The notes below the pieces were generated by a model. The model was given only the letters and a program-made list of their open reading frames with translations, made no database searches and was not told the origin of the DNA. A stretch of DNA of 64,000 bases from Escherichia coli O127:H6 str. E2348/69 (GTDB lineage: Bacteria > Pseudomonadota > Gammaproteobacteria > Enterobacterales > Enterobacteriaceae), in the NCBI RefSeq assembly GCF_000026545.1, contig NC_011601.1. The stretch is one strand, 5' to 3'. Position numbers and translations under genes: made by a program. Positions within the stretch are counted from its first letter, which is position 1. The number at the start of each line of letters is the position of its first letter. Of this stretch, positions 3,142-60,252 are shown piece by piece.

Positions 3142-4434
3142 ATGATTAAATCAAAAATCGTGCTGTTATCAGCACTGGTTTCCTGCGCCCTGATTTCAGG
3201 CTGTAAAGAAGAAAATAAAACGAATGTATCCATCGAATTTATGCATTCTTCGGTGGAGCAGGAGCGCCAGGCCGTTATCAGTAAATTGATTGCCCGTTTT
3301 GAAAAAGAAAACCCTGGCATCACCGTTAAGCAAGTGCCCGTGGAAGAAGATGCCTATAACACTAAAGTCATTACTCTTTCACGTAGCGGTTCGCTGCCGG
3401 AAGTGATCGAAACCAGCCATGACTACGCCAAAGTGATGGACAAAGAGCAGCTTATCGATCGTAAAGCGGTTGCCACGGTCATCAGCAACGTCGGTGAAGG
3501 CGCGTTCTACGATGGCGTACTGCGGATTGTGCGCACCGAAGATGGCAGCGCCTGGACCGGTGTTCCTGTCAGCGCATGGATTGGCGGGATCTGGTATCGC
3601 AAAGATGTGCTGGCAAAAGCTGGGCTGGAGGAGCCAAAAAACTGGCAGCAATTGCTGGACGTTGCACAGAAACTGAATGACCCGGCGAATAAAAAATACG
3701 GTATTGCGCTGCCTACAGCAGAAAGCGTGTTGACGGAACAGTCTTTCTCCCTGTTTGCGTTATCCAATCAGGCTAACGTCTTTAACGCCGAAGGCAAAAT
3801 CACCCTTGATACACCAGAGATGATGCAGGCGCTGACCTATTACCGCGACCTTGCTGCCAACACCATGCCAGGTTCTAACGACATCATGGAAGTGAAAGAC
3901 GCTTTTATGAACGGCACCGCGCCGATGGCGATTTACTCCACCTATATCCTTCCGGCTGTGATTAAAGAAGGCGATCCGAAAAACGTCGGTTTCGTGGTGC
4001 CAACCGAGAAAAATTCTGCGGTCTACGGCATGTTGACCTCGCTGACCATTACCGCCGGGCAAAAGGCCGAAGAGACGGAAGCAGCAGAAAAATTTGTCAC
4101 CTTTATGGAGCAGGCGGACAACATTGCCGACTGGGTGATGATGTCACCAGGCGCGGCGCTGCCGGTGAACAAAGCGGTGGTGACTACCGCTACCTGGAAA
4201 GACAACGACGTTATTAAGGCGCTGGGAGAATTGCCGAATCAGCTAATCAGCGAACTGCCAAATATTCAGGTCTTTGGCGCAGTAGGGGATAAAAACTTTA
4301 CCCGCATGGGCGATGTGACGGGGTCTGGCGTGGTGAGTTCAATGGTGCATAACGTCACCGTGGGTAAAGCCGATCTCCCTGGCACGCTGCAAGCGAGCCA
4401 GAAAAAGCTGGATGAACTGATCGAACAGCACTAA
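3142..4434 (+). CDS. ycjN: ABC transporter periplasmic sugar-binding protein
   Basis: 430-aa ORF with lipoprotein-type signal (LISGC); operon position. Confidence 0.85.
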   Translation: MIKSKIVLLSALVSCALISGCKEENKTNVSIEFMHSSVEQERQAVISKLIARFEKENPGITVKQVPVEEDAYNTKVITLSRSGSLPEVIETSHDYAKVMDKEQLIDRKAVATVISNVGEGAFYDGVLRIVRTEDGSAWTGVPVSAWIGGIWYRKDVLAKAGLEEPKNWQQLLDVAQKLNDPANKKYGIALPTAESVLTEQSFSLFALSNQANVFNAEGKITLDTPEMMQALTYYRDLAANTMPGSNDIMEVKDAFMNGTAPMAIYSTYILPAVIKEGDPKNVGFVVPTEKNSAVYGMLTSLTITAGQKAEETEAAEKFVTFMEQADNIADWVMMSPGAALPVNKAVVTTATWKDNDVIKALGELPNQLISELPNIQVFGAVGDKNFTRMGDVTGSGVVSSMVHNVTVGKADLPGTLQASQKKLDELIEQH

Positions 4435-21038: not shown

Positions 21039-21545
21039 TTATGCTTTCAGTACAGCCAGAGCTGCTTCGTAATCCGGCTCGGTGGTGATTTCATCCACCA
21101 GCTGGCTGAAAATCACATTGTCATTTTCATCAATAACCACAACGGCACGCGCTGCCAGACCTTTCAGTGGGCCATCAGCAATTGCCACACCGTAGGCTTG
21201 CAGGAATTCAGCGTTACGGAAAGTGGAGAGGGTGATAACGTTGTTCAGACCTTCTGCGCCGCAGAAACGAGACTGGGCGAACGGCAGATCGGCAGAGATA
21301 CACAGCACAACGGTGTTGTCGATCTCGGTTGCCAGTTGGTTAAACTTACGCACTGATGCGGCGCAAACACCGGTATCAATACTCGGGAAAATGTTCAGCA
21401 CTTTGCGTTTACCCGCAAACTGACCGAGGGTGACGTCAGACAGATCTTTTGCCACGAGAGTAAAAGTCTGCGCTTTGCTACCCGCCTGCGGGATGGAATT
21501 GGCGACTGTAACCGGGTTGCCCTGGAAATGAACGGTTTGTGACAT
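21039..21545 (-). CDS. tpx: Thiol peroxidase
   Basis: 168-aa ORF matching recalled Tpx ([22 protein letters not shown]...). Confidence 0.9.
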
Positions 21546-52681: not shown

Positions 52682-55321
52682 ATGCTGGGTAAATATAAAG
52701 CCGTTCTCGCGCTGTTATTACTGATTATTCTTGTGCCGTTGACGCTGCTGATGACGCTCGGGCTGTGGGTTCCCACGCTGGCGGGCATCTGGCTACCGCT
52801 CGGGACACGTATTGCATTAGATGAAAGCCCACGCATTACGCGTAAAGGTTTAATCATCCCCGATCTCCGTTATCTGGTGGGAGATTGTCAGCTTGCGCAT
52901 ATCACCAACGCCAGCCTTTCACATCCCAGCCGCTGGTTATTGAACGTCGGCACGGTAGAACTTGATTCTGCTTGTCTGGCGAAATTGCCGCAGACGGAGC
53001 AATCGCCAGCCGCTCCAAAAACCCTCGCGCAGTGGCAGTCCATGCTGCCTAACACCTGGATCAATATCGATAAACTGATTTTTTCTCCCTGGCAGGAATG
53101 GCAGGGAAAACTCTCTCTCGCATTAACCTCCGATATCCAGCAACTGTGTTATCAGGGCGAAAAAGTTAAATTTCAAGGCCAGCTGAAAGGGCAACAACTT
53201 ACAGTCAGCGAACTGGATGTCGCCGCGTTTGAAAATCAGCCGCCGGTAAAACTGGTGGGGGAATTTACTATGCCGCTCGTGCCGGATGGACTTCCGGTAA
53301 GTGGTCATGCTACTGCGACGTTAAACTTACCGCAGGAGCCTTCACTGGTGGATGCCGAGCTGGACTGGCAGGAAAATAGCGGGCAATTGATTGTGCTGGC
53401 ACGGGATAACGGCGATCCGTTGCTCGATTTGCCGTGGCAAATTACTCGTCAACAATTGACCGTAAGCGATGGTCGCTGGAGCTGGCCGTATGCAGGTTTT
53501 CCTTTGAGTGGCCGACTGGGTGTCAAAGTCGACAACTGGCAGGCAGGGCTCGAGAACGCTCTGGTCAGCGGGCGACTGAGTGTGCTGACCCAGGGGCAAG
53601 CGGGTAAAGGCAACGCGGTGTTAAATTTTGGCCCAGGAAAATTAAGCATGGATAACAGCCAGCTGCCTCTGCAGCTGACCGGTGAAGCGAAACAGGCGGA
53701 CCTCATTTTATATGCCCGTTTACCTGCGCAGCTAAGTGGAAGTCTGTCTGACCCAACGCTGACCTTTGAGCCTGGCGCGTTACTTCGTTCAAAGGGAAGA
53801 GTCATTGATTCGCTGGACATCGATGAAATCCGCTGGCCTTTAGCGGGTGTAAAAGTCACCCAACGTGGTGTTGACGGACGTTTGCAGGCCATTTTGCAGG
53901 CGCATGAAAATGAACTGGGCGATTTCGTGCTGCATATGGATGGGCTGGCGAATGATTTTCTCCCTGACGCTGGCCGCTGGCAGTGGCGCTACTGGGGAAA
54001 AGGGAGTTTTACACCAATGAATGCCACCTGGGATGTCGCAGGAAAAGGTGAGTGGCATGACAGCACTATTACGCTGACCGATCTCTCCACCGGTTTCGAC
54101 CAGTTACAATACGGTACGATGACGGTAGAAAAGCCGCGATTAATTCTCGACAAGCCCGTCGTCTGGGGACGTGACGCACAGCATCCCTCCTTCAGCGGCG
54201 CTCTGTCACTGGACGCCGGGCAAACGCTGTTCACTGGCGGCAGTGTGTTACCGCCATCAACCTTAAAATTTAGTGTCGATGGGCGCGATCCGACGTATTT
54301 CCTCTTTAAAGGCGATTTACATGCTGGTGAGATTGGCCCGGTTCGGGTAAATGGTCGCTGGGACGGTATTCGTCTGCGCGGTAACGCCTGGTGGCCTAAA
54401 CAATCACTGACTGTATTCCAGCCGTTGGTGCCACCCGACTGGAAGATGAACTTACGCGATGGTGAACTGTATGCTCAGGTCGCATTTTCAGCAGCGCCCG
54501 AACAAGGATTCCGCGCGGGAGGACACGGCGTGTTGAAAGGCGGTAGTGCCTGGATGCCAGATAATCAGGTTAACGGTGTCGATTTTGTCCTGCCTTTCCG
54601 TTTTGCCGATGGAGCCTGGCATCTGGGGACTCGCGGTCCCGTTACGTTGCGAATTGCCGAAGTGATTAATCTGGTGACAGCGAAAAATATTACGGCTGAT
54701 TTGCAAGGTCGTTATCCGTGGACTGAAGAAGAACCATTGCTGTTGACTGATGTTAGTGTCGATGTGTTAGGCGGTAACGTGCTGATGAAACAATTACGTA
54801 TGCCGCAACATGACCCGGCGCTGTTGCGGCTGAATAATCTTTCCTCCAGCGAACTGGTTAGCGCCGTCAATCCGAAACAATTCGCCATGTCCGGGGCATT
54901 TAGTGGTGCATTGCCGTTATGGCTAAACAACGAAAAATGGATAGTGAAAGACGGCTGGCTGGCAAATAGCGGGCCGATGACCTTGCGGCTGGATAAAGAC
55001 ACCGCAGATGCGGTGGTGAAAGACAATATGACCGCGGGTTCAGCAATTAACTGGTTGCGCTATATGGAAATTAGCCGTTCATCGACAAAAATTAATTTAG
55101 ATAATCTCGGTTTATTAACCATGCAGGCCAACATTACAGGTACCAGTCGCGTTGATGGTAAAAGCGGTACGGTAAATCTTAATTACCATCATGAAGAGAA
55201 TATTTTTACGCTGTGGCGCAGTTTACGCTTTGGCGATAATCTCCAGGCATGGCTGGAGCAGAACGCGCGTCTGCCGGGAAATGACTGTCCGCAAGGAAAA
55301 GAGTGTGAGGATAAACAATGA
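52682..55321 (+). CDS. ydbH: Large AsmA-like envelope protein YdbH
   Basis: 879-aa ORF with N-terminal TM anchor; first gene of ydbH-ynbE-ydbL. Confidence 0.85.
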   Translation: MLGKYKAVLALLLLIILVPLTLLMTLGLWVPTLAGIWLPLGTRIALDESPRITRKGLIIPDLRYLVGDCQLAHITNASLSHPSRWLLNVGTVELDSACLAKLPQTEQSPAAPKTLAQWQSMLPNTWINIDKLIFSPWQEWQGKLSLALTSDIQQLCYQGEKVKFQGQLKGQQLTVSELDVAAFENQPPVKLVGEFTMPLVPDGLPVSGHATATLNLPQEPSLVDAELDWQENSGQLIVLARDNGDPLLDLPWQITRQQLTVSDGRWSWPYAGFPLSGRLGVKVDNWQAGLENALVSGRLSVLTQGQAGKGNAVLNFGPGKLSMDNSQLPLQLTGEAKQADLILYARLPAQLSGSLSDPTLTFEPGALLRSKGRVIDSLDIDEIRWPLAGVKVTQRGVDGRLQAILQAHENELGDFVLHMDGLANDFLPDAGRWQWRYWGKGSFTPMNATWDVAGKGEWHDSTITLTDLSTGFDQLQYGTMTVEKPRLILDKPVVWGRDAQHPSFSGALSLDAGQTLFTGGSVLPPSTLKFSVDGRDPTYFLFKGDLHAGEIGPVRVNGRWDGIRLRGNAWWPKQSLTVFQPLVPPDWKMNLRDGELYAQVAFSAAPEQGFRAGGHGVLKGGSAWMPDNQVNGVDFVLPFRFADGAWHLGTRGPVTLRIAEVINLVTAKNITADLQGRYPWTEEEPLLLTDVSVDVLGGNVLMKQLRMPQHDPALLRLNNLSSSELVSAVNPKQFAMSGAFSGALPLWLNNEKWIVKDGWLANSGPMTLRLDKDTADAVVKDNMTAGSAINWLRYMEISRSSTKINLDNLGLLTMQANITGTSRVDGKSGTVNLNYHHEENIFTLWRSLRFGDNLQAWLEQNARLPGNDCPQGKECEDKQ

Positions 55322-55503
55322 AAATTTTACTGGCTGCGTTGACGTCATCTTTTATGCTGGTTGGCTGTACGCCTCGCATTGAAGTCGCTGCACCTAAGGA
55401 ACCGATCACTATCAATATGAACGTTAAAATTGAGCATGAGATCATCATCAAGGCAGACAAAGACGTCGAAGAGCTGCTTGAGACCCGTAGCGATCTTTTT
55501 TGA
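55318..55503 (+). CDS. ynbE: Small lipoprotein YnbE
   Basis: 61-aa ORF overlapping ydbH stop (ATGA); lipobox LVGC. Confidence 0.8.
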   Translation: MKILLAALTSSFMLVGCTPRIEVAAPKEPITINMNVKIEHEIIIKADKDVEELLETRSDLF

Positions 55504-55510
55504 GGTGATG

Positions 55511-55837
55511 ATGAAAAGAACATTACTTCTTTGTGCATTTCTTGTTGGCTTGGTAAGCAGCAATGTAATGGCATTGACTCTGGATGAAGCCAGAACTCAG
55601 GGGCGAGTAGGCGAAACATTTTATGGTTATCTGGTTGCGCTGAAAACAGATGCTGAAACTGAGAAATTAGTAACCGACATTAATGCCGAACGTAAAGCGA
55701 GCTATCAACAACTGGCAAAGCAAAATAATGTGTCGGTAGATGATATCGCGAAACTCGCCGGGCAAAAGCTTGTAGAACGGGCCAAACCCGGGGAATATGT
55801 ACAAGGGATAAACGGTAAATGGGTGCGAAAATTTTAA
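55511..55837 (+). CDS. ydbL: Periplasmic protein YdbL (DUF1318)
   Basis: ORF track starts at 55430; ATG 55511 gives MKRTLLLCAFLVGL... (108 aa). Confidence 0.8.
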   Translation: MKRTLLLCAFLVGLVSSNVMALTLDEARTQGRVGETFYGYLVALKTDAETEKLVTDINAERKASYQQLAKQNNVSVDDIAKLAGQKLVERAKPGEYVQGINGKWVRKF

Positions 55838-55970
55838 TAGCAAAACCGCAATATCGGGATAACGCTACAGGAGAAGACGATTAATCTATTTTCCGGAAAT
55901 AAGATGATTATTCAAAAATTCCTGCCAAATTGCCTTTTGCCCTGAAAAATGCATAATCAAATATCTGTTT

Positions 55971-56011
55971 TAACTAATTCGCGTTGCTGTACATGCAACG
56001 CGAATTAGTTA
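55971..56011. terminator. Bidirectional terminator: perfect 17-bp inverted repeat
   Basis: taactaattcgcgttgc / gcaacgcgaattagtta with 7-nt loop; right arm contains the feaR-remnant stop codon. Confidence 0.5.
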
Positions 56012-56346
56012 GCGGAATTTACGCCGATTCTCGCCTGGCGTCATCCCAAAGCGTTGTTTAAATACCGTTGAAAAATGACTCTGGTCGGAAAATCCCCAAT
56101 GAAAGCCAATGCCTGCCAGTTTTTCATCATCTGCGGCATGGCGAATCGCATCTGCACAAAAATCGAGACGACGGTTACGAATATATTGCGCGACCACCAA
56201 ACCTTTATCGGCAAACTTTATCAGCGCGTAGCGCCTGCTGCTGTAGCGTTCGTTAGTGAAAAAGATGAAACCTCGGTCGGTGAGCTGCCTTCGCCGGGTA
56301 GCCTGTATTTTCAACGTTTTGGCGGTTTGAATATTGAACAGGAGGT
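56009..56346 (-). pseudogene. feaR: AraC-family regulator FeaR, 3' remnant (HTH domain only)
   Basis: About 112 codons of AraC-type HTH C-terminus; frame opens at a stop at 56347-56349 and has no upstream continuation. Confidence 0.7.
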
Positions 56347-56348
56347 GT

Positions 56349-56970
56349 TAAGCCAATTTATCAGATAGACGGTCTGACTCCGATAGTAACAGAAGAGAGT
56401 TTTGTTCATCCGACAGAGGTATTGATCGGCGATGTTATTCTCGGCAAGGGCGTTTACGTTGGACCAAATGCCAGCCTGCGAGGTGATTTTAGTCGTATCG
56501 TGGAGAAAGATGGCGCGAACATTCAGGATAATTGCGTTATGCACGGCTTTCCCGGGCAGGATACTGTCGTTGAAGAAGATGGGCATATTGGTCATAGCGC
56601 TATCCTTCACGGCTGCAATATCCGCCGCAATGCATTAGTGGGAATGAACGCGGTAGTGATGGTCGGTGCGGTGATTGGTGAGAACAGTATTGTTGGCGCA
56701 TCCGCATTTGTGAAAGCCAAAGCAGAAATGCCTGCTAATTATCTGATTGTCAGCAGCCCGGCAAAAGCGATTCGTGAACTTAGTGAGCAGGAGCTGGCAT
56801 GGAAAAAGCAGGGCACGCATGAGTATCAGGTGCTGGTGACACGTTGTAAGCAGACGTTGCATCAAGTCGAGCCATTGCGGGAAGTTGAACCTGGCAGGCA
56901 GCGTCTGGTATTTGATGAGAATCTGCGACCGAAACAGTCACGTCCAGATGCTGAACGTTCTAATTTTTAG
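56349..56970 (+). pseudogene. paaY: Hexapeptide-repeat protein PaaY, start codon lost and +1 frameshift
   Basis: AAG where the ATG is expected (56349-56351); [10 protein letters not shown]... frame stops at 56424-56426 after a T5 run (56399-56403); remainder in another frame. Confidence 0.7.
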
Positions 56971-56983
56971 CATGTGATACCTT

Positions 56984-57016
56984 AACCGCAACGCTGATAC
57001 AGGTTGCGGTTTTTTA
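56984..57016 (+). terminator. Intrinsic terminator after paaY
   Basis: aaccgcaac ... gttgcggtt hairpin followed by TTTTTT. Confidence 0.5.
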
Positions 57017-57170
57017 TTGCCGGATGCGGTACTTGACGCGTTTTGTTTTGGTGTCTTTCAGGATATTAGAGCTACTCATCCAGTAATCTTGTTTACGCCT
57101 TCGCATTATTTATCTCTATTCATTTCTATACTGATTTTTCTTAATCCGTTTTATTACAGGGCAGGGTGCG

Positions 57171-58037
57171 ATGAGCAGCAACACATTTACTCTCGGTACA
57201 AAATCCGTTAACCGTCTTGGTTATGGCGCGATGCAACTGGCAGGTCCTGGGGTTTTTGGCCCCCCAAGAGATCGCCACGTCGCTATAACCGTGCTGCGCG
57301 AGGCGCTGGCATTGGGCGTCAATCATATTGATACCAGCGACTTTTATGGTCCGCACGTCACCAATCAGATTATCCGCGAAGCGCTTTATCCGTACTCTGA
57401 CGACCTGACAATTGTCACTAAAATTGGTGCGCGGCGTGGAGAGGACGCTTCCTGGTTACCCGCATTTTCTCCGGCAGAGCTGCAAAAAGCGGTACACGAT
57501 AATCTACGTAATCTCGGCCTGGACGTACTGGATGTGGTTAACCTGCGCGTTATGATGGGGGATGGTCATGGCCCAGCGGAAGGATCGATTGAAGCCAGCC
57601 TTACCGTGCTGGCGGAGATGCAACAACAAGGCCTGGTAAAACATATTGGCCTGAGTAACGTCACACCGACGCAGGTTGCAGAGGCGCGAAAGATTGCCGA
57701 AATCGTCTGCGTGCAGAACGAATACAACATTGTCCACCGAGCTGATGACGCAATGATTGATGCTTTGGCTCGTGATGGCATTGCCTACGTGCCATTCTTT
57801 CCGCTCGGGGGCTTTACGCCGCTGCAATCCTCCACGCTTTCCGATGTTGCTGCGAGCCTTAATGCGACACCAATGCAGGTGGCGCTGGCGTGGCTGTTAC
57901 AGCGTTCACCGAATATTTTGCTGATTCCTGGCACCTCTTCGGTGGGACATCTGCGGGAGAATATGGCGTCCGATGAATTAGTGCTAACGGATGACGTGCT
58001 GGCAACGCTGGACAGTATTTCGCAAAAGGCGGGTTAA
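57171..58037 (+). CDS. ydbC: Aldo-keto reductase
   Basis: 288-aa AKR-family ORF (GYGAMQLAG...). Confidence 0.85.
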   Translation: MSSNTFTLGTKSVNRLGYGAMQLAGPGVFGPPRDRHVAITVLREALALGVNHIDTSDFYGPHVTNQIIREALYPYSDDLTIVTKIGARRGEDASWLPAFSPAELQKAVHDNLRNLGLDVLDVVNLRVMMGDGHGPAEGSIEASLTVLAEMQQQGLVKHIGLSNVTPTQVAEARKIAEIVCVQNEYNIVHRADDAMIDALARDGIAYVPFFPLGGFTPLQSSTLSDVAASLNATPMQVALAWLLQRSPNILLIPGTSSVGHLRENMASDELVLTDDVLATLDSISQKAG

Positions 58038-58051
58038 ATAAAAAAACCTCC

Positions 58052-58061
58052 CACTTTCGTG
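58052..58061. repeat. Flanking direct repeat of IS copy B (CACTTTCGTG), left
   Basis: 10-bp identical sequence at 58052-58061 and 59612-59621 (9-bp TSD plus one coincident base). Confidence 0.6.
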
Positions 58062-59611
58062 CTGTCTCTTGATCAGATCTCCTGATCAAGAGACTTCATC
58101 ACCAGGTAACCCTCAACCATATCCTGAAGTCTGAACCAGCCATCCCACATGACTACCCAACCGGGGCGACCGGTGCGTTTGCTGTCATGCCATCGCCCCA
58201 GTTTCGCCAGTTTCAGACAGGCCCATTTCAGTGTCGGCATCTGTGACGGAAGCGGTTTTCCTTCCAGCTTAACCCACAGCAGTTTCCACTCTGTCGGCGT
58301 CAGTATTTTCTCACAGCTGTCATTTTGTGTTTCTTCACTGATACCGCCCTGCCGCAGGCCCAGCACCCGCACCGCGATAAACGCCTTGATAACCACCATG
58401 CGCTCGAGGTTATCCCGGGTCTGCATTCGCAGCGATTCCACACATGTACCACCACTTTTCCACGCCTTGTGGTATTCCTCTATCAGCCAGCGTCGCTCGT
58501 AATGGCTGACGATACGTCGCGCATCGGCGGCACTCGCCACTTTTTCTGACGTCAGCAGATGCCAGCAGGCGCCGTCCTCTGCCTGCTCCCGGCAACAGAC
58601 ATACGTGAGCGGGAGCGCCTGGCCGCTGTTGTCGGGATTTTTTATGCTGACTTCGCTGTAACTGATGAACATCCGGGCCTGGCGGGCTGCCCGCCCGCCT
58701 TTTTGCATCACATTCAGCGTGTGGCTTCCCGCGGTTGCCAGGACTTCCGGCAGTTCGAAGAGCTTGCCGGGTGCTTCTTCCAGCCGGCGATTCTGTGCTG
58801 CACGCACCACGAAGCGCTGCCCGTGGCTGACTTTATAATGCAGGTAATGCCAGATATCCGCTTCCCGGTCACAGACAGTGATTACCCGTTTCTGTATCTC
58901 CCCCAGCCGTTCGGCCATGCGCTCCGAAGCCTGCTGCCAGCGGTAACTTTCTTTTTCTTCATAGGGACGTTCTTTTCGCTGGTGCTTAACACCGTAGGTG
59001 TCCGTGGCACGACTCCAGCGCTGCTGTTCGATAAGACCGACTGGCAGGGCGCTGTCGGGGGCGTACATCAGGACAGAGTGAGCCAGCAGCCCGCGCGTCT
59101 TCGGGTTAGTGGTGGTATTCCCCAGGTCATCAGATGCCGTACTGTGACTGAAGTTAATGGTGGTGGTGTCTTCCAGCGCGAGGAGCAGCGGATGAGCCTC
59201 ACATGCCCTTACAGTGGCGGTAAATCCGGCTTCGGCAATGGCTTGCGGGGACACAGACGGGTTACGTATCAGGCGGTACGCACCTTCAACCTGAGCAGTG
59301 GACTGGGATGATTTCACAATAGAAAGACCTGCATGCTGAGCGAGAGAAGAGGCCAGTGACACAAGGCGTCGTGTACGACGCGGATCACCGAGACGGGCAT
59401 GTCCAAACTGCTCGTTAGCCCATGAATAACAATCAGAAAGTACCATAACAGACCCGAAGAAAATGAAATATAAGAGAAGATCAACGGGTGAGGAAAAAGT
59501 TCAAAAAATCGCTGCCGGGGAGGAAGGAAACTACCGGATGGAAAGAGTCCCCCTAAAGCAGACTGACAGACATCACAAATCCCCGGGTGGGGATTTGTGT
59601 ATAAGAGACAG
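58062..59611 (-). mobile_element. IS50-like insertion sequence, copy B, 1550 bp, inverted relative to copy A
   Basis: Inside end CTGTCTCTTGATCAGATCT at 58062-58080; outside end (rc CTGTCTCTTATACACAAAT) at 59593-59611; encoded proteins identical to copy A. Confidence 0.9.
58073..59446 (-). CDS. DDE transposase, Tn5 Tnp-like (457 aa)
   Basis: Protein identical to the transposase at 11370-12743. Confidence 0.9.
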   Translation of the reverse strand: MVLSDCYSWANEQFGHARLGDPRRTRRLVSLASSLAQHAGLSIVKSSQSTAQVEGAYRLIRNPSVSPQAIAEAGFTATVRACEAHPLLLALEDTTTINFSHSTASDDLGNTTTNPKTRGLLAHSVLMYAPDSALPVGLIEQQRWSRATDTYGVKHQRKERPYEEKESYRWQQASERMAERLGEIQKRVITVCDREADIWHYLHYKVSHGQRFVVRAAQNRRLEEAPGKLFELPEVLATAGSHTLNVMQKGGRAARQARMFISYSEVSIKNPDNSGQALPLTYVCCREQAEDGACWHLLTSEKVASAADARRIVSHYERRWLIEEYHKAWKSGGTCVESLRMQTRDNLERMVVIKAFIAVRVLGLRQGGISEETQNDSCEKILTPTEWKLLWVKLEGKPLPSQMPTLKWACLKLAKLGRWHDSKRTGRPGWVVMWDGWFRLQDMVEGYLVMKSLDQEI

Positions 59612-59621
59612 CACTTTCGTG
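59612..59621. repeat. Flanking direct repeat of IS copy B (CACTTTCGTG), right
   Basis: Matches 58052-58061. Confidence 0.6.
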
Positions 59622-59637
59622 GGAGGCATCATAAATC

Positions 59638-60252
<615 letters not shown>

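Follow-up and report, generated by a model that had tools for sequence, protein, structure and literature searches.

The window analyzed here is a stretch of 64,000 nucleotides from the chromosome of Escherichia coli O127:H6 str. E2348/69 (NC_011601.1), a strain that we take to belong to phylogroup B2. A 2.1-kb query covering window positions 55500-57600 finds 100% matches in three enteropathogenic E. coli (EPEC) O127:H6 E2348/69 chromosome records. From left to right, the RefSeq annotation of the region places ydbL, a helix-turn-helix (HTH) pseudogene, a PaaX pseudogene, paaY, pdxI (ydbC) and an ISEc13 transposase. A 17-bp perfect inverted repeat at 55971-56012, presumed to form a convergent terminator hairpin, lies between ydbL and the first pseudogene; its predicted RNA fold reaches -30.9 kcal/mol (z = -6.9 against shuffled sequences), and it separates the ydbH-ynbE-ydbL operon from the gene remnants. 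On the other side of those remnants pdxI is intact (57171-58037, plus strand), according to both the open reading frame (ORF) list and RefSeq.

The HTH pseudogene is the 3' end of feaR, located on the minus strand at 56009-56216 and comprising codons 234-301 and the stop, with colinearity to K-12 extending to base 3586 of the reference extract described below. Its translation, FADKGLVV...RRKFR, corresponds to FeaR residues 234-301 with one change (Y295N), and RefSeq lists it as H4J01_RS12865, a partial "helix-turn-helix domain-containing protein" pseudogene (window 56009-56215). In the remnant the AraC-type HTH_18 domain (Pfam, residues 219-299) is short of its first 15 residues, and the ligand-binding domain is gone entirely. 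An earlier note on this DNA had recognized a minus-strand feaR 3' remnant from 56009, which alignment to K-12 bears out. It had also described the remnant as retaining only the HTH domain; part of that domain does remain, but residues 234-301 do not span it. In A31, a strain with intact paa genes, feaR has an internal stop (GAA>TAA, equivalent to window 56123-56125; A31 locus extract 2045-2950), indicating that the regulator can be lost while the catabolic genes stay.

Immediately to the right, on the plus strand at 56217-56368, is the 3' end of paaX. This remnant of 152 nt, equivalent to positions 21339-21490 of the K-12 extract, consists of the last 50 codons (PaaX residues 267-316) and a TAG stop that overlaps paaY. 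Its translation, LYQRVAPAA...QFIR before the stop, is the PaaX C-terminus, and RefSeq annotates it as the partial pseudogene H4J01_RS12860 (window 56216-56368).

The junction between feaR and paaX

The window was compared by blastn with K-12 MG1655 (NC_000913.3, extract 1,443,000-1,478,000), and three blocks align. Window 55000-56219 corresponds to K-12 ydbH through the 3' end of feaR (96.1% identity, gap-free), 56217-56941 to the 3' end of paaX through paaY (93.8%, gap-free) and 56954-58023 to the last bases of ydbA together with pdxI. The first two blocks adjoin in the window and are 17,752 bp apart in K-12, with a similar spacing in the paa-intact strains A31 and no107. The E2348/69 flanks are colinear, at 94-96% identity, with the K-12 feaR-feaB-tynA-paaZ-paaABCDEFGHIJK-paaXY region (b1384-b1400): both genomes share ydbH-ynbE-ydbL-feaR 3' as the left flank and paaX 3'-paaY as the right flank, whereas E2348/69 is without the 17,752 bp between feaR codon 233 and paaX codon 267 (NC_000913.3 1,446,586-1,464,337). 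The missing genes are the 5' 77% of feaR, feaB, tynA, paaZ, paaABCDEFGHIJK and the 5' 84% of paaX, in agreement with the single deletion of roughly 17 kb, taking feaB, tynA, paaZ, paaA-K and parts of paaX and feaR, that had been proposed from the sequence of the window.

A three-way alignment with both K-12 flanks places this junction (junction 1, 56210-56225) between 56216 and 56217, in the sequence GGCAAAC/TTTATCAGC, and base-level alignments to K-12 and to A31 and no107 agree on the placement. In the intact genomes the left flank reads GGCAAAC/ATTCGG and the right flank TCAACA/TTTATCAGC. The last 68 codons of feaR, on the minus strand, are thus joined back to back with the last 50 codons of paaX, on the plus strand. 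Alignment to K-12 had been suggested as a way of defining the endpoints and any microhomology, and it identifies the hexamer AACATT at both K-12 endpoints. The observed junction, GGCAAAC/TTTATC, is one A shorter than the product of slippage between these hexamers, and the strict overlap is 0 nt. A simple AACATT microhomology-mediated deletion therefore fits imperfectly, its predicted product being off by one base, and a second repeat pair, TTTATCGGC/TTTATCAGC, would predict another junction.

To look for copies of the missing genes in other places, a chimeric probe was assembled from window 55500-58040 and 250 nt each of K-12 paaA, paaC, paaK and tynA, and searched by blastn in "distant" mode. 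No second place with paaA, paaC, paaK or tynA was found in any of the three E2348/69 chromosome records (the search covered the chromosome), so the paa cluster elsewhere in the genome that would have spoken against the deletion did not appear on the chromosome. In other carriers of the junction, too, the probe matched at one place only, and in O157:H7 records only a divergent ydbL matched. On its gene content, E2348/69 would be without the genes for 2-phenylethylamine oxidation and for phenylacetate degradation, and a corresponding growth phenotype is predicted.

The locus is very probably the scar of one illegitimate-recombination deletion of 17,752 bp, joined at 56216/56217, after which paaY became a relic. 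In this model, a single event would have taken out everything from within feaR to within paaX. The same deletion would have removed the paaX promoter that drives paaXY, along with the pathway that PaaY serves. Decay of paaY would have followed, with the E2348/69 lineage losing the ATG (now AAG) and the stop codon, and gaining mostly nonsynonymous changes.

Distribution and history of the junction

The genes paaA-E are detectable in 3,154 of 5,426 complete E. coli genomes and absent from the other 2,272 (42%). The alleles that lack them were given labels in this analysis. Type A, defined by junction 1 of the window, is found in 259 genomes (about 5%); many of its carriers, among the matches listed, are poultry isolates. 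In type B (564 genomes), a feaR remnant of 252 nt is joined to the final 329 nt of paaY, with a ydbA-like gene still present. In type C (1,036 genomes, including Nissle 1917, 83972 and ATCC 25922), no remnants are left, and an intact ydbA-like gene comes immediately after ydbL. Types B and C thus reach the same outcome as type A: the core genes ydbL and pdxI flank the locus in each, and no fea, tyn or paa genes lie between them. The deletion in E2348/69 is not specific to the strain; it is shared by 259 genomes on several flanking haplotypes, and the loss of paaA-E in 42% of genomes involves at least three loss alleles other than type A.

Two further observations concern the locus as a whole. 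The ydbL-pdxI interval (55838-57170) is a multi-allelic hot spot for loss, with at least four alleles that lack the fea, tyn and paa genes: types A, B and C and the form found in O157:H7. Smaller partial deletions occur here as well, including tynA-paaZ-paaA rearrangements and the case of GF31, which keeps only paaK-paaX-paaY.

Six type A alleles (E2348/69, strain 104, Rb-50, EC488, AR13438 and A25) were compared with one another and with three paa-intact comparators. The same imprecise junction is present in all six. In paaX'-paaY these alleles differ by up to 5.7%, with a dN/dS of 0.17, and the differences are arranged as a mosaic: strain 104 resembles K-12 between 56243 and about 56700 and E2348/69 between 56763 and 56859, and EC488 and AR13438 are K-12-like further right. 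Reading outward from the junction, the first differences among type A alleles appear 21 nt away on the left and 27 nt away on the right. Two type A variants to the left of the junction (56087 and 56108) and two to its right (56899 and 56901) are common to all six alleles and absent from all three intact comparators.

Most likely, the type A allele arose once and its carriers later recombined with paa-intact donors. Conversion tracts from such donors would end where homology ends, at the junction. The divergence of the right-flank haplotypes, by 5.7%, and the onset of changes within 21 and 27 nt of the junction could instead be taken to mean that the same junction arose several times by recurrent, sequence-directed deletion. 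The near-microhomology of AACATT at both K-12 endpoints would offer such a deletion a template of sorts, and a low dN/dS (0.17) alongside up to 5.7% divergence would fit independent deletions, or continued selection on paaY, just as well. However, a junction that falls one A short of the AACATT-slippage product is the same in all six alleles, variants specific to type A (judged against the three intact comparators) are linked to it on both sides, and the other losses of the cluster end elsewhere, in type B at different points in feaR and paaY and in type C without remnants. Recurrence at exactly this position is thus quite improbable.

A broader proposal adds selection to the single origin of type A. 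It may be that the allele arose once, that homologous recombination then introduced it into unrelated backgrounds (a human EPEC clone and many poultry isolates among them), with tracts from paa-intact donors ending at the junction time and again, and that loss of the cluster was recurrently selected. This extended scenario is speculative, and we consider it unlikely. If true, the spread of type A, together with at least three other loss alleles in the 42% of genomes, would point to positive selection rather than neutral decay in some niches.

One byproduct of the deletion is a chimeric, ATG-initiated ORF of 97 codons (56075-56368, plus strand), in which 47 codons of antisense feaR' continue, without a change of frame, into the 50 remaining codons of paaX. 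The ORF is uninterrupted in each of the six type A alleles examined and is probably a matter of chance.

State of paaY and the ydbA scar

The plus-strand paaY frame extends from 56350 to 56970, as the earlier note had it and as the ORF list and K-12 alignment confirm, and is colinear with K-12 PaaY over all 196 residues. The E2348/69 gene differs from that of K-12 in that both its start and stop codons are mutated. The AAG at 56350-56352, already recognized in place of the ATG and seen again in the K-12 alignment, is common to E2348/69 and A25; ATG is present in K-12, A31 and no107 and in the other type A carriers examined (strain 104, EC488, AR13438 and Rb-50). The next canonical in-frame start is a TTG at codon 25. 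At the other end, the former TAA stop (56938-56940) is TCA in E2348/69, A25 and Rb-50 and remains TAA in strain 104, EC488 and AR13438; its loss adds 10 codons, to 56970, and gives an ORF open for 206 codons. A Shine-Dalgarno sequence, AGGAGG, is kept upstream at 56341-56346, and PGAP annotates an intact CDS, WP_029694377.1, at 56356-56970, with an ATT start at 56356.

Within the clade formed by E2348/69, A25 and Rb-50, paaY has accumulated six nonsynonymous changes (M1K, A23E, V52E, H65P, I90N and D105V) and two synonymous ones, a ratio close to the neutral 3.3:1; on the deeper branch leading to this clade there are about 5 nonsynonymous against 11 synonymous changes. Four of the substitutions in E2348/69 are radical (A23E, V52E, I90N and D105V). 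The closest solved homologue, 8gpm, has the same residues at A23, H65 and D105 and a conservative Ile in place of V52. Because the recent changes occur at a neutral ratio, and both the ATG and the stop have been lost, paaY in this clade appears to be evolving as a pseudogene, as judged from substitution patterns. The RefSeq "intact" paaY starting at ATT is likely an over-annotation of a pseudogene, that is, of a decaying relic.

The genes paaXY form one transcriptional unit, with its promoter upstream of paaX (PMC13186573), and since the deletion took the region upstream of paaX, the promoter of the unit was removed with it. In a scan of 55800-57250 for promoters and terminators, no plus-strand promoter-like site was found between the hairpin and paaY; the number of sites was at or near the expectation from shuffled sequences, which makes the scan as a whole of little informative value. 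Expression of paaY would thus have been lost.

It could be argued that paaY is instead a functional orphan, retained after the deletion for a role independent of the paa pathway (general acyl-CoA thioesterase activity, for example) and read from the ATT at 56356. No type A allele among the six examined interrupts the frame, and a paaY CDS is annotated in the other listed carriers; deep type A haplotypes show a dN/dS of only 0.12-0.17 against one another, and the AGGAGG at 56341-56346 is retained. Weak translation from the ATT start annotated by PGAP may also occur. However, the recent changes in the E2348/69 clade, at roughly 3:1 nonsynonymous, include the loss of both ATG and stop as well as replacements at positions conserved in 8gpm, and the paaX promoter region is deleted with no plus-strand promoter-like site from hairpin to paaY to take its place. 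Type B and type C alleles, moreover, dispense with half or all of the gene, and the mosaic pattern shows that exchange with paa-intact donors accounts for the low dN/dS at depth. We thus give little credence to a paa-independent function for paaY, and pseudogene decay remains the preferred reading.

The changes private to E2348/69 and A25 are also unevenly distributed. Seven fall within 400 nt (56265-56663), as opposed to about five in the other 1,700 nt compared. A/T transversions dominate (T>A at 56351, 56385, 56504 and 56618; A>T at 56663; with C>A at 56417), a spectrum that is unusual for E. coli.

The organization of these frames accounts for a different reading of the junction in the earlier note, in which the feaR remnant was fused directly to codon 1 of a start-less paaY that also carried a +1 frameshift at a T5 run (56399-56403). 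The minus-strand frame containing feaR' is indeed open to 56347, with its stop at 56348-56350, paaY homology does begin at 56350, and the ATG is AAG, so that the two frames meet at 56347-56351 as described. This meeting point is not the junction. Homology to feaR ends at 56216; the 44 minus-strand codons beyond it (56217-56347) have no FeaR counterpart and are a chance extension of the frame through antisense paaX' (the ORF list gives 56009-56314), which is why the position where that extension stops was mistaken for the junction. The sequence at 56217-56368 is paaX, and is annotated as such by RefSeq, which puts the right endpoint inside paaX, 133 nt upstream of paaY. Nor is there a frameshift: the run is T4 (56400-56403), as in K-12, and the alignment is gap-free throughout paaY and indeed over 56217-56941. 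A direct feaR-paaY fusion with a frameshift is thus scarcely credible, and we retain the junction at 56216/56217.

Beyond paaY, a second junction (junction 2) carries a scar of ydbA at 56941-56963, consisting of approximately the last 30 nt of that gene with an 11-nt internal gap and adjoining the paaY stop. About 8.9 kb of K-12 sequence, comprising ydbA with IS2 and IS30, is absent here. The 200-bp distance from the end of the paaY ORF to pdxI, which starts at 57171, and the absence of ydbA had been pointed out previously and are supported by RefSeq and by the K-12 alignment. Including the missing ydbA in the paa deletion was considered and rejected: paaY lies next to pdxI without ydbA in 2,032 of the 5,426 genomes, including A31 and no107. 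Because this adjacency occurs in paa-intact strains, the ydbA loss is a separate and common polymorphism, an independent, older and much commoner deletion. The segment from paaX' through pdxI (56217-58023) is unusually polymorphic for E. coli, with 92.9-93.8% identity to K-12, A31 and no107 and a paaY dS of 0.15-0.20, and only 6 of the 5,426 genomes have at least 99% identity to the window across junction 2.

The right-hand flank has changed further. In E2348/69, pdxI is followed by the ISEc13 transposase (58073-59446) and then azoR, and the ydbD-ynbA-ynbB-ynbC-ynbD genes, about 7 kb in A31 and K-12, are missing (window 58038-59700). Rb-50 and A25 go straight from pdxI to azoR without an insertion sequence, which points to a second deletion common to the clade, plus an IS insertion that is not seen in those two strains. 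In several RefSeq records, the ydbA-like autotransporter gene of 8.5-8.6 kb is labelled "EntS/YbdA MFS transporter" (loci L003 and L004 from 5819; ATCC 25922, H272); this looks like a mix-up of the names ydbA and ybdA.

Relation to published variation at the locus

Variation in the presence of this locus has been published before, and the feaR and paaX remnants are already RefSeq pseudogenes. Goldstone 2016 (PMC4951805) counts the paa locus among regions of genomic heterogeneity flanked by core genes and gives full-length ydbA for about 42% of phylogroup A. In Leimbach 2017 (PMC5422975), the paa determinant is missing from the B2 and E representatives of one strain panel, and Elovaara 2015 (PMC4640556) detected tynA in just 17% of EPEC isolates and in none of the O157:H7 isolates. 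To the extent that these texts were available, all three concern gene presence and absence; the junction endpoints and the sharing of one junction across haplotypes come from the present analysis. No published description of this junction in E2348/69 was found in the literature.

The published picture of an island inserted between core genes (PMC4951805), along with the absence of paaA-E from 42% of genomes, might suggest that E2348/69 has an empty ancestral site into which the fea-tyn-paa genes were inserted in K-12 and its relatives, but the window keeps truncated feaR and paaX genes whose lost parts adjoin the cluster in intact genomes, and because an empty site would hold no gene fragments, this possibility is negligible for the type A allele.

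The deletion in E2348/69 is real but ordinary, an event of a familiar kind at a locus already known to vary. The lost genes explain why this strain should not use phenylethylamine or phenylacetate. Two aspects of the annotation can be corrected: the junction lies inside paaX, and the "intact" ATT-start paaY of RefSeq is more likely a relic in decay. On a wider view, the interest is one of modest population genetics rather than of a new system, with at least four loss alleles at a single locus, one of them distributed across divergent haplotypes.
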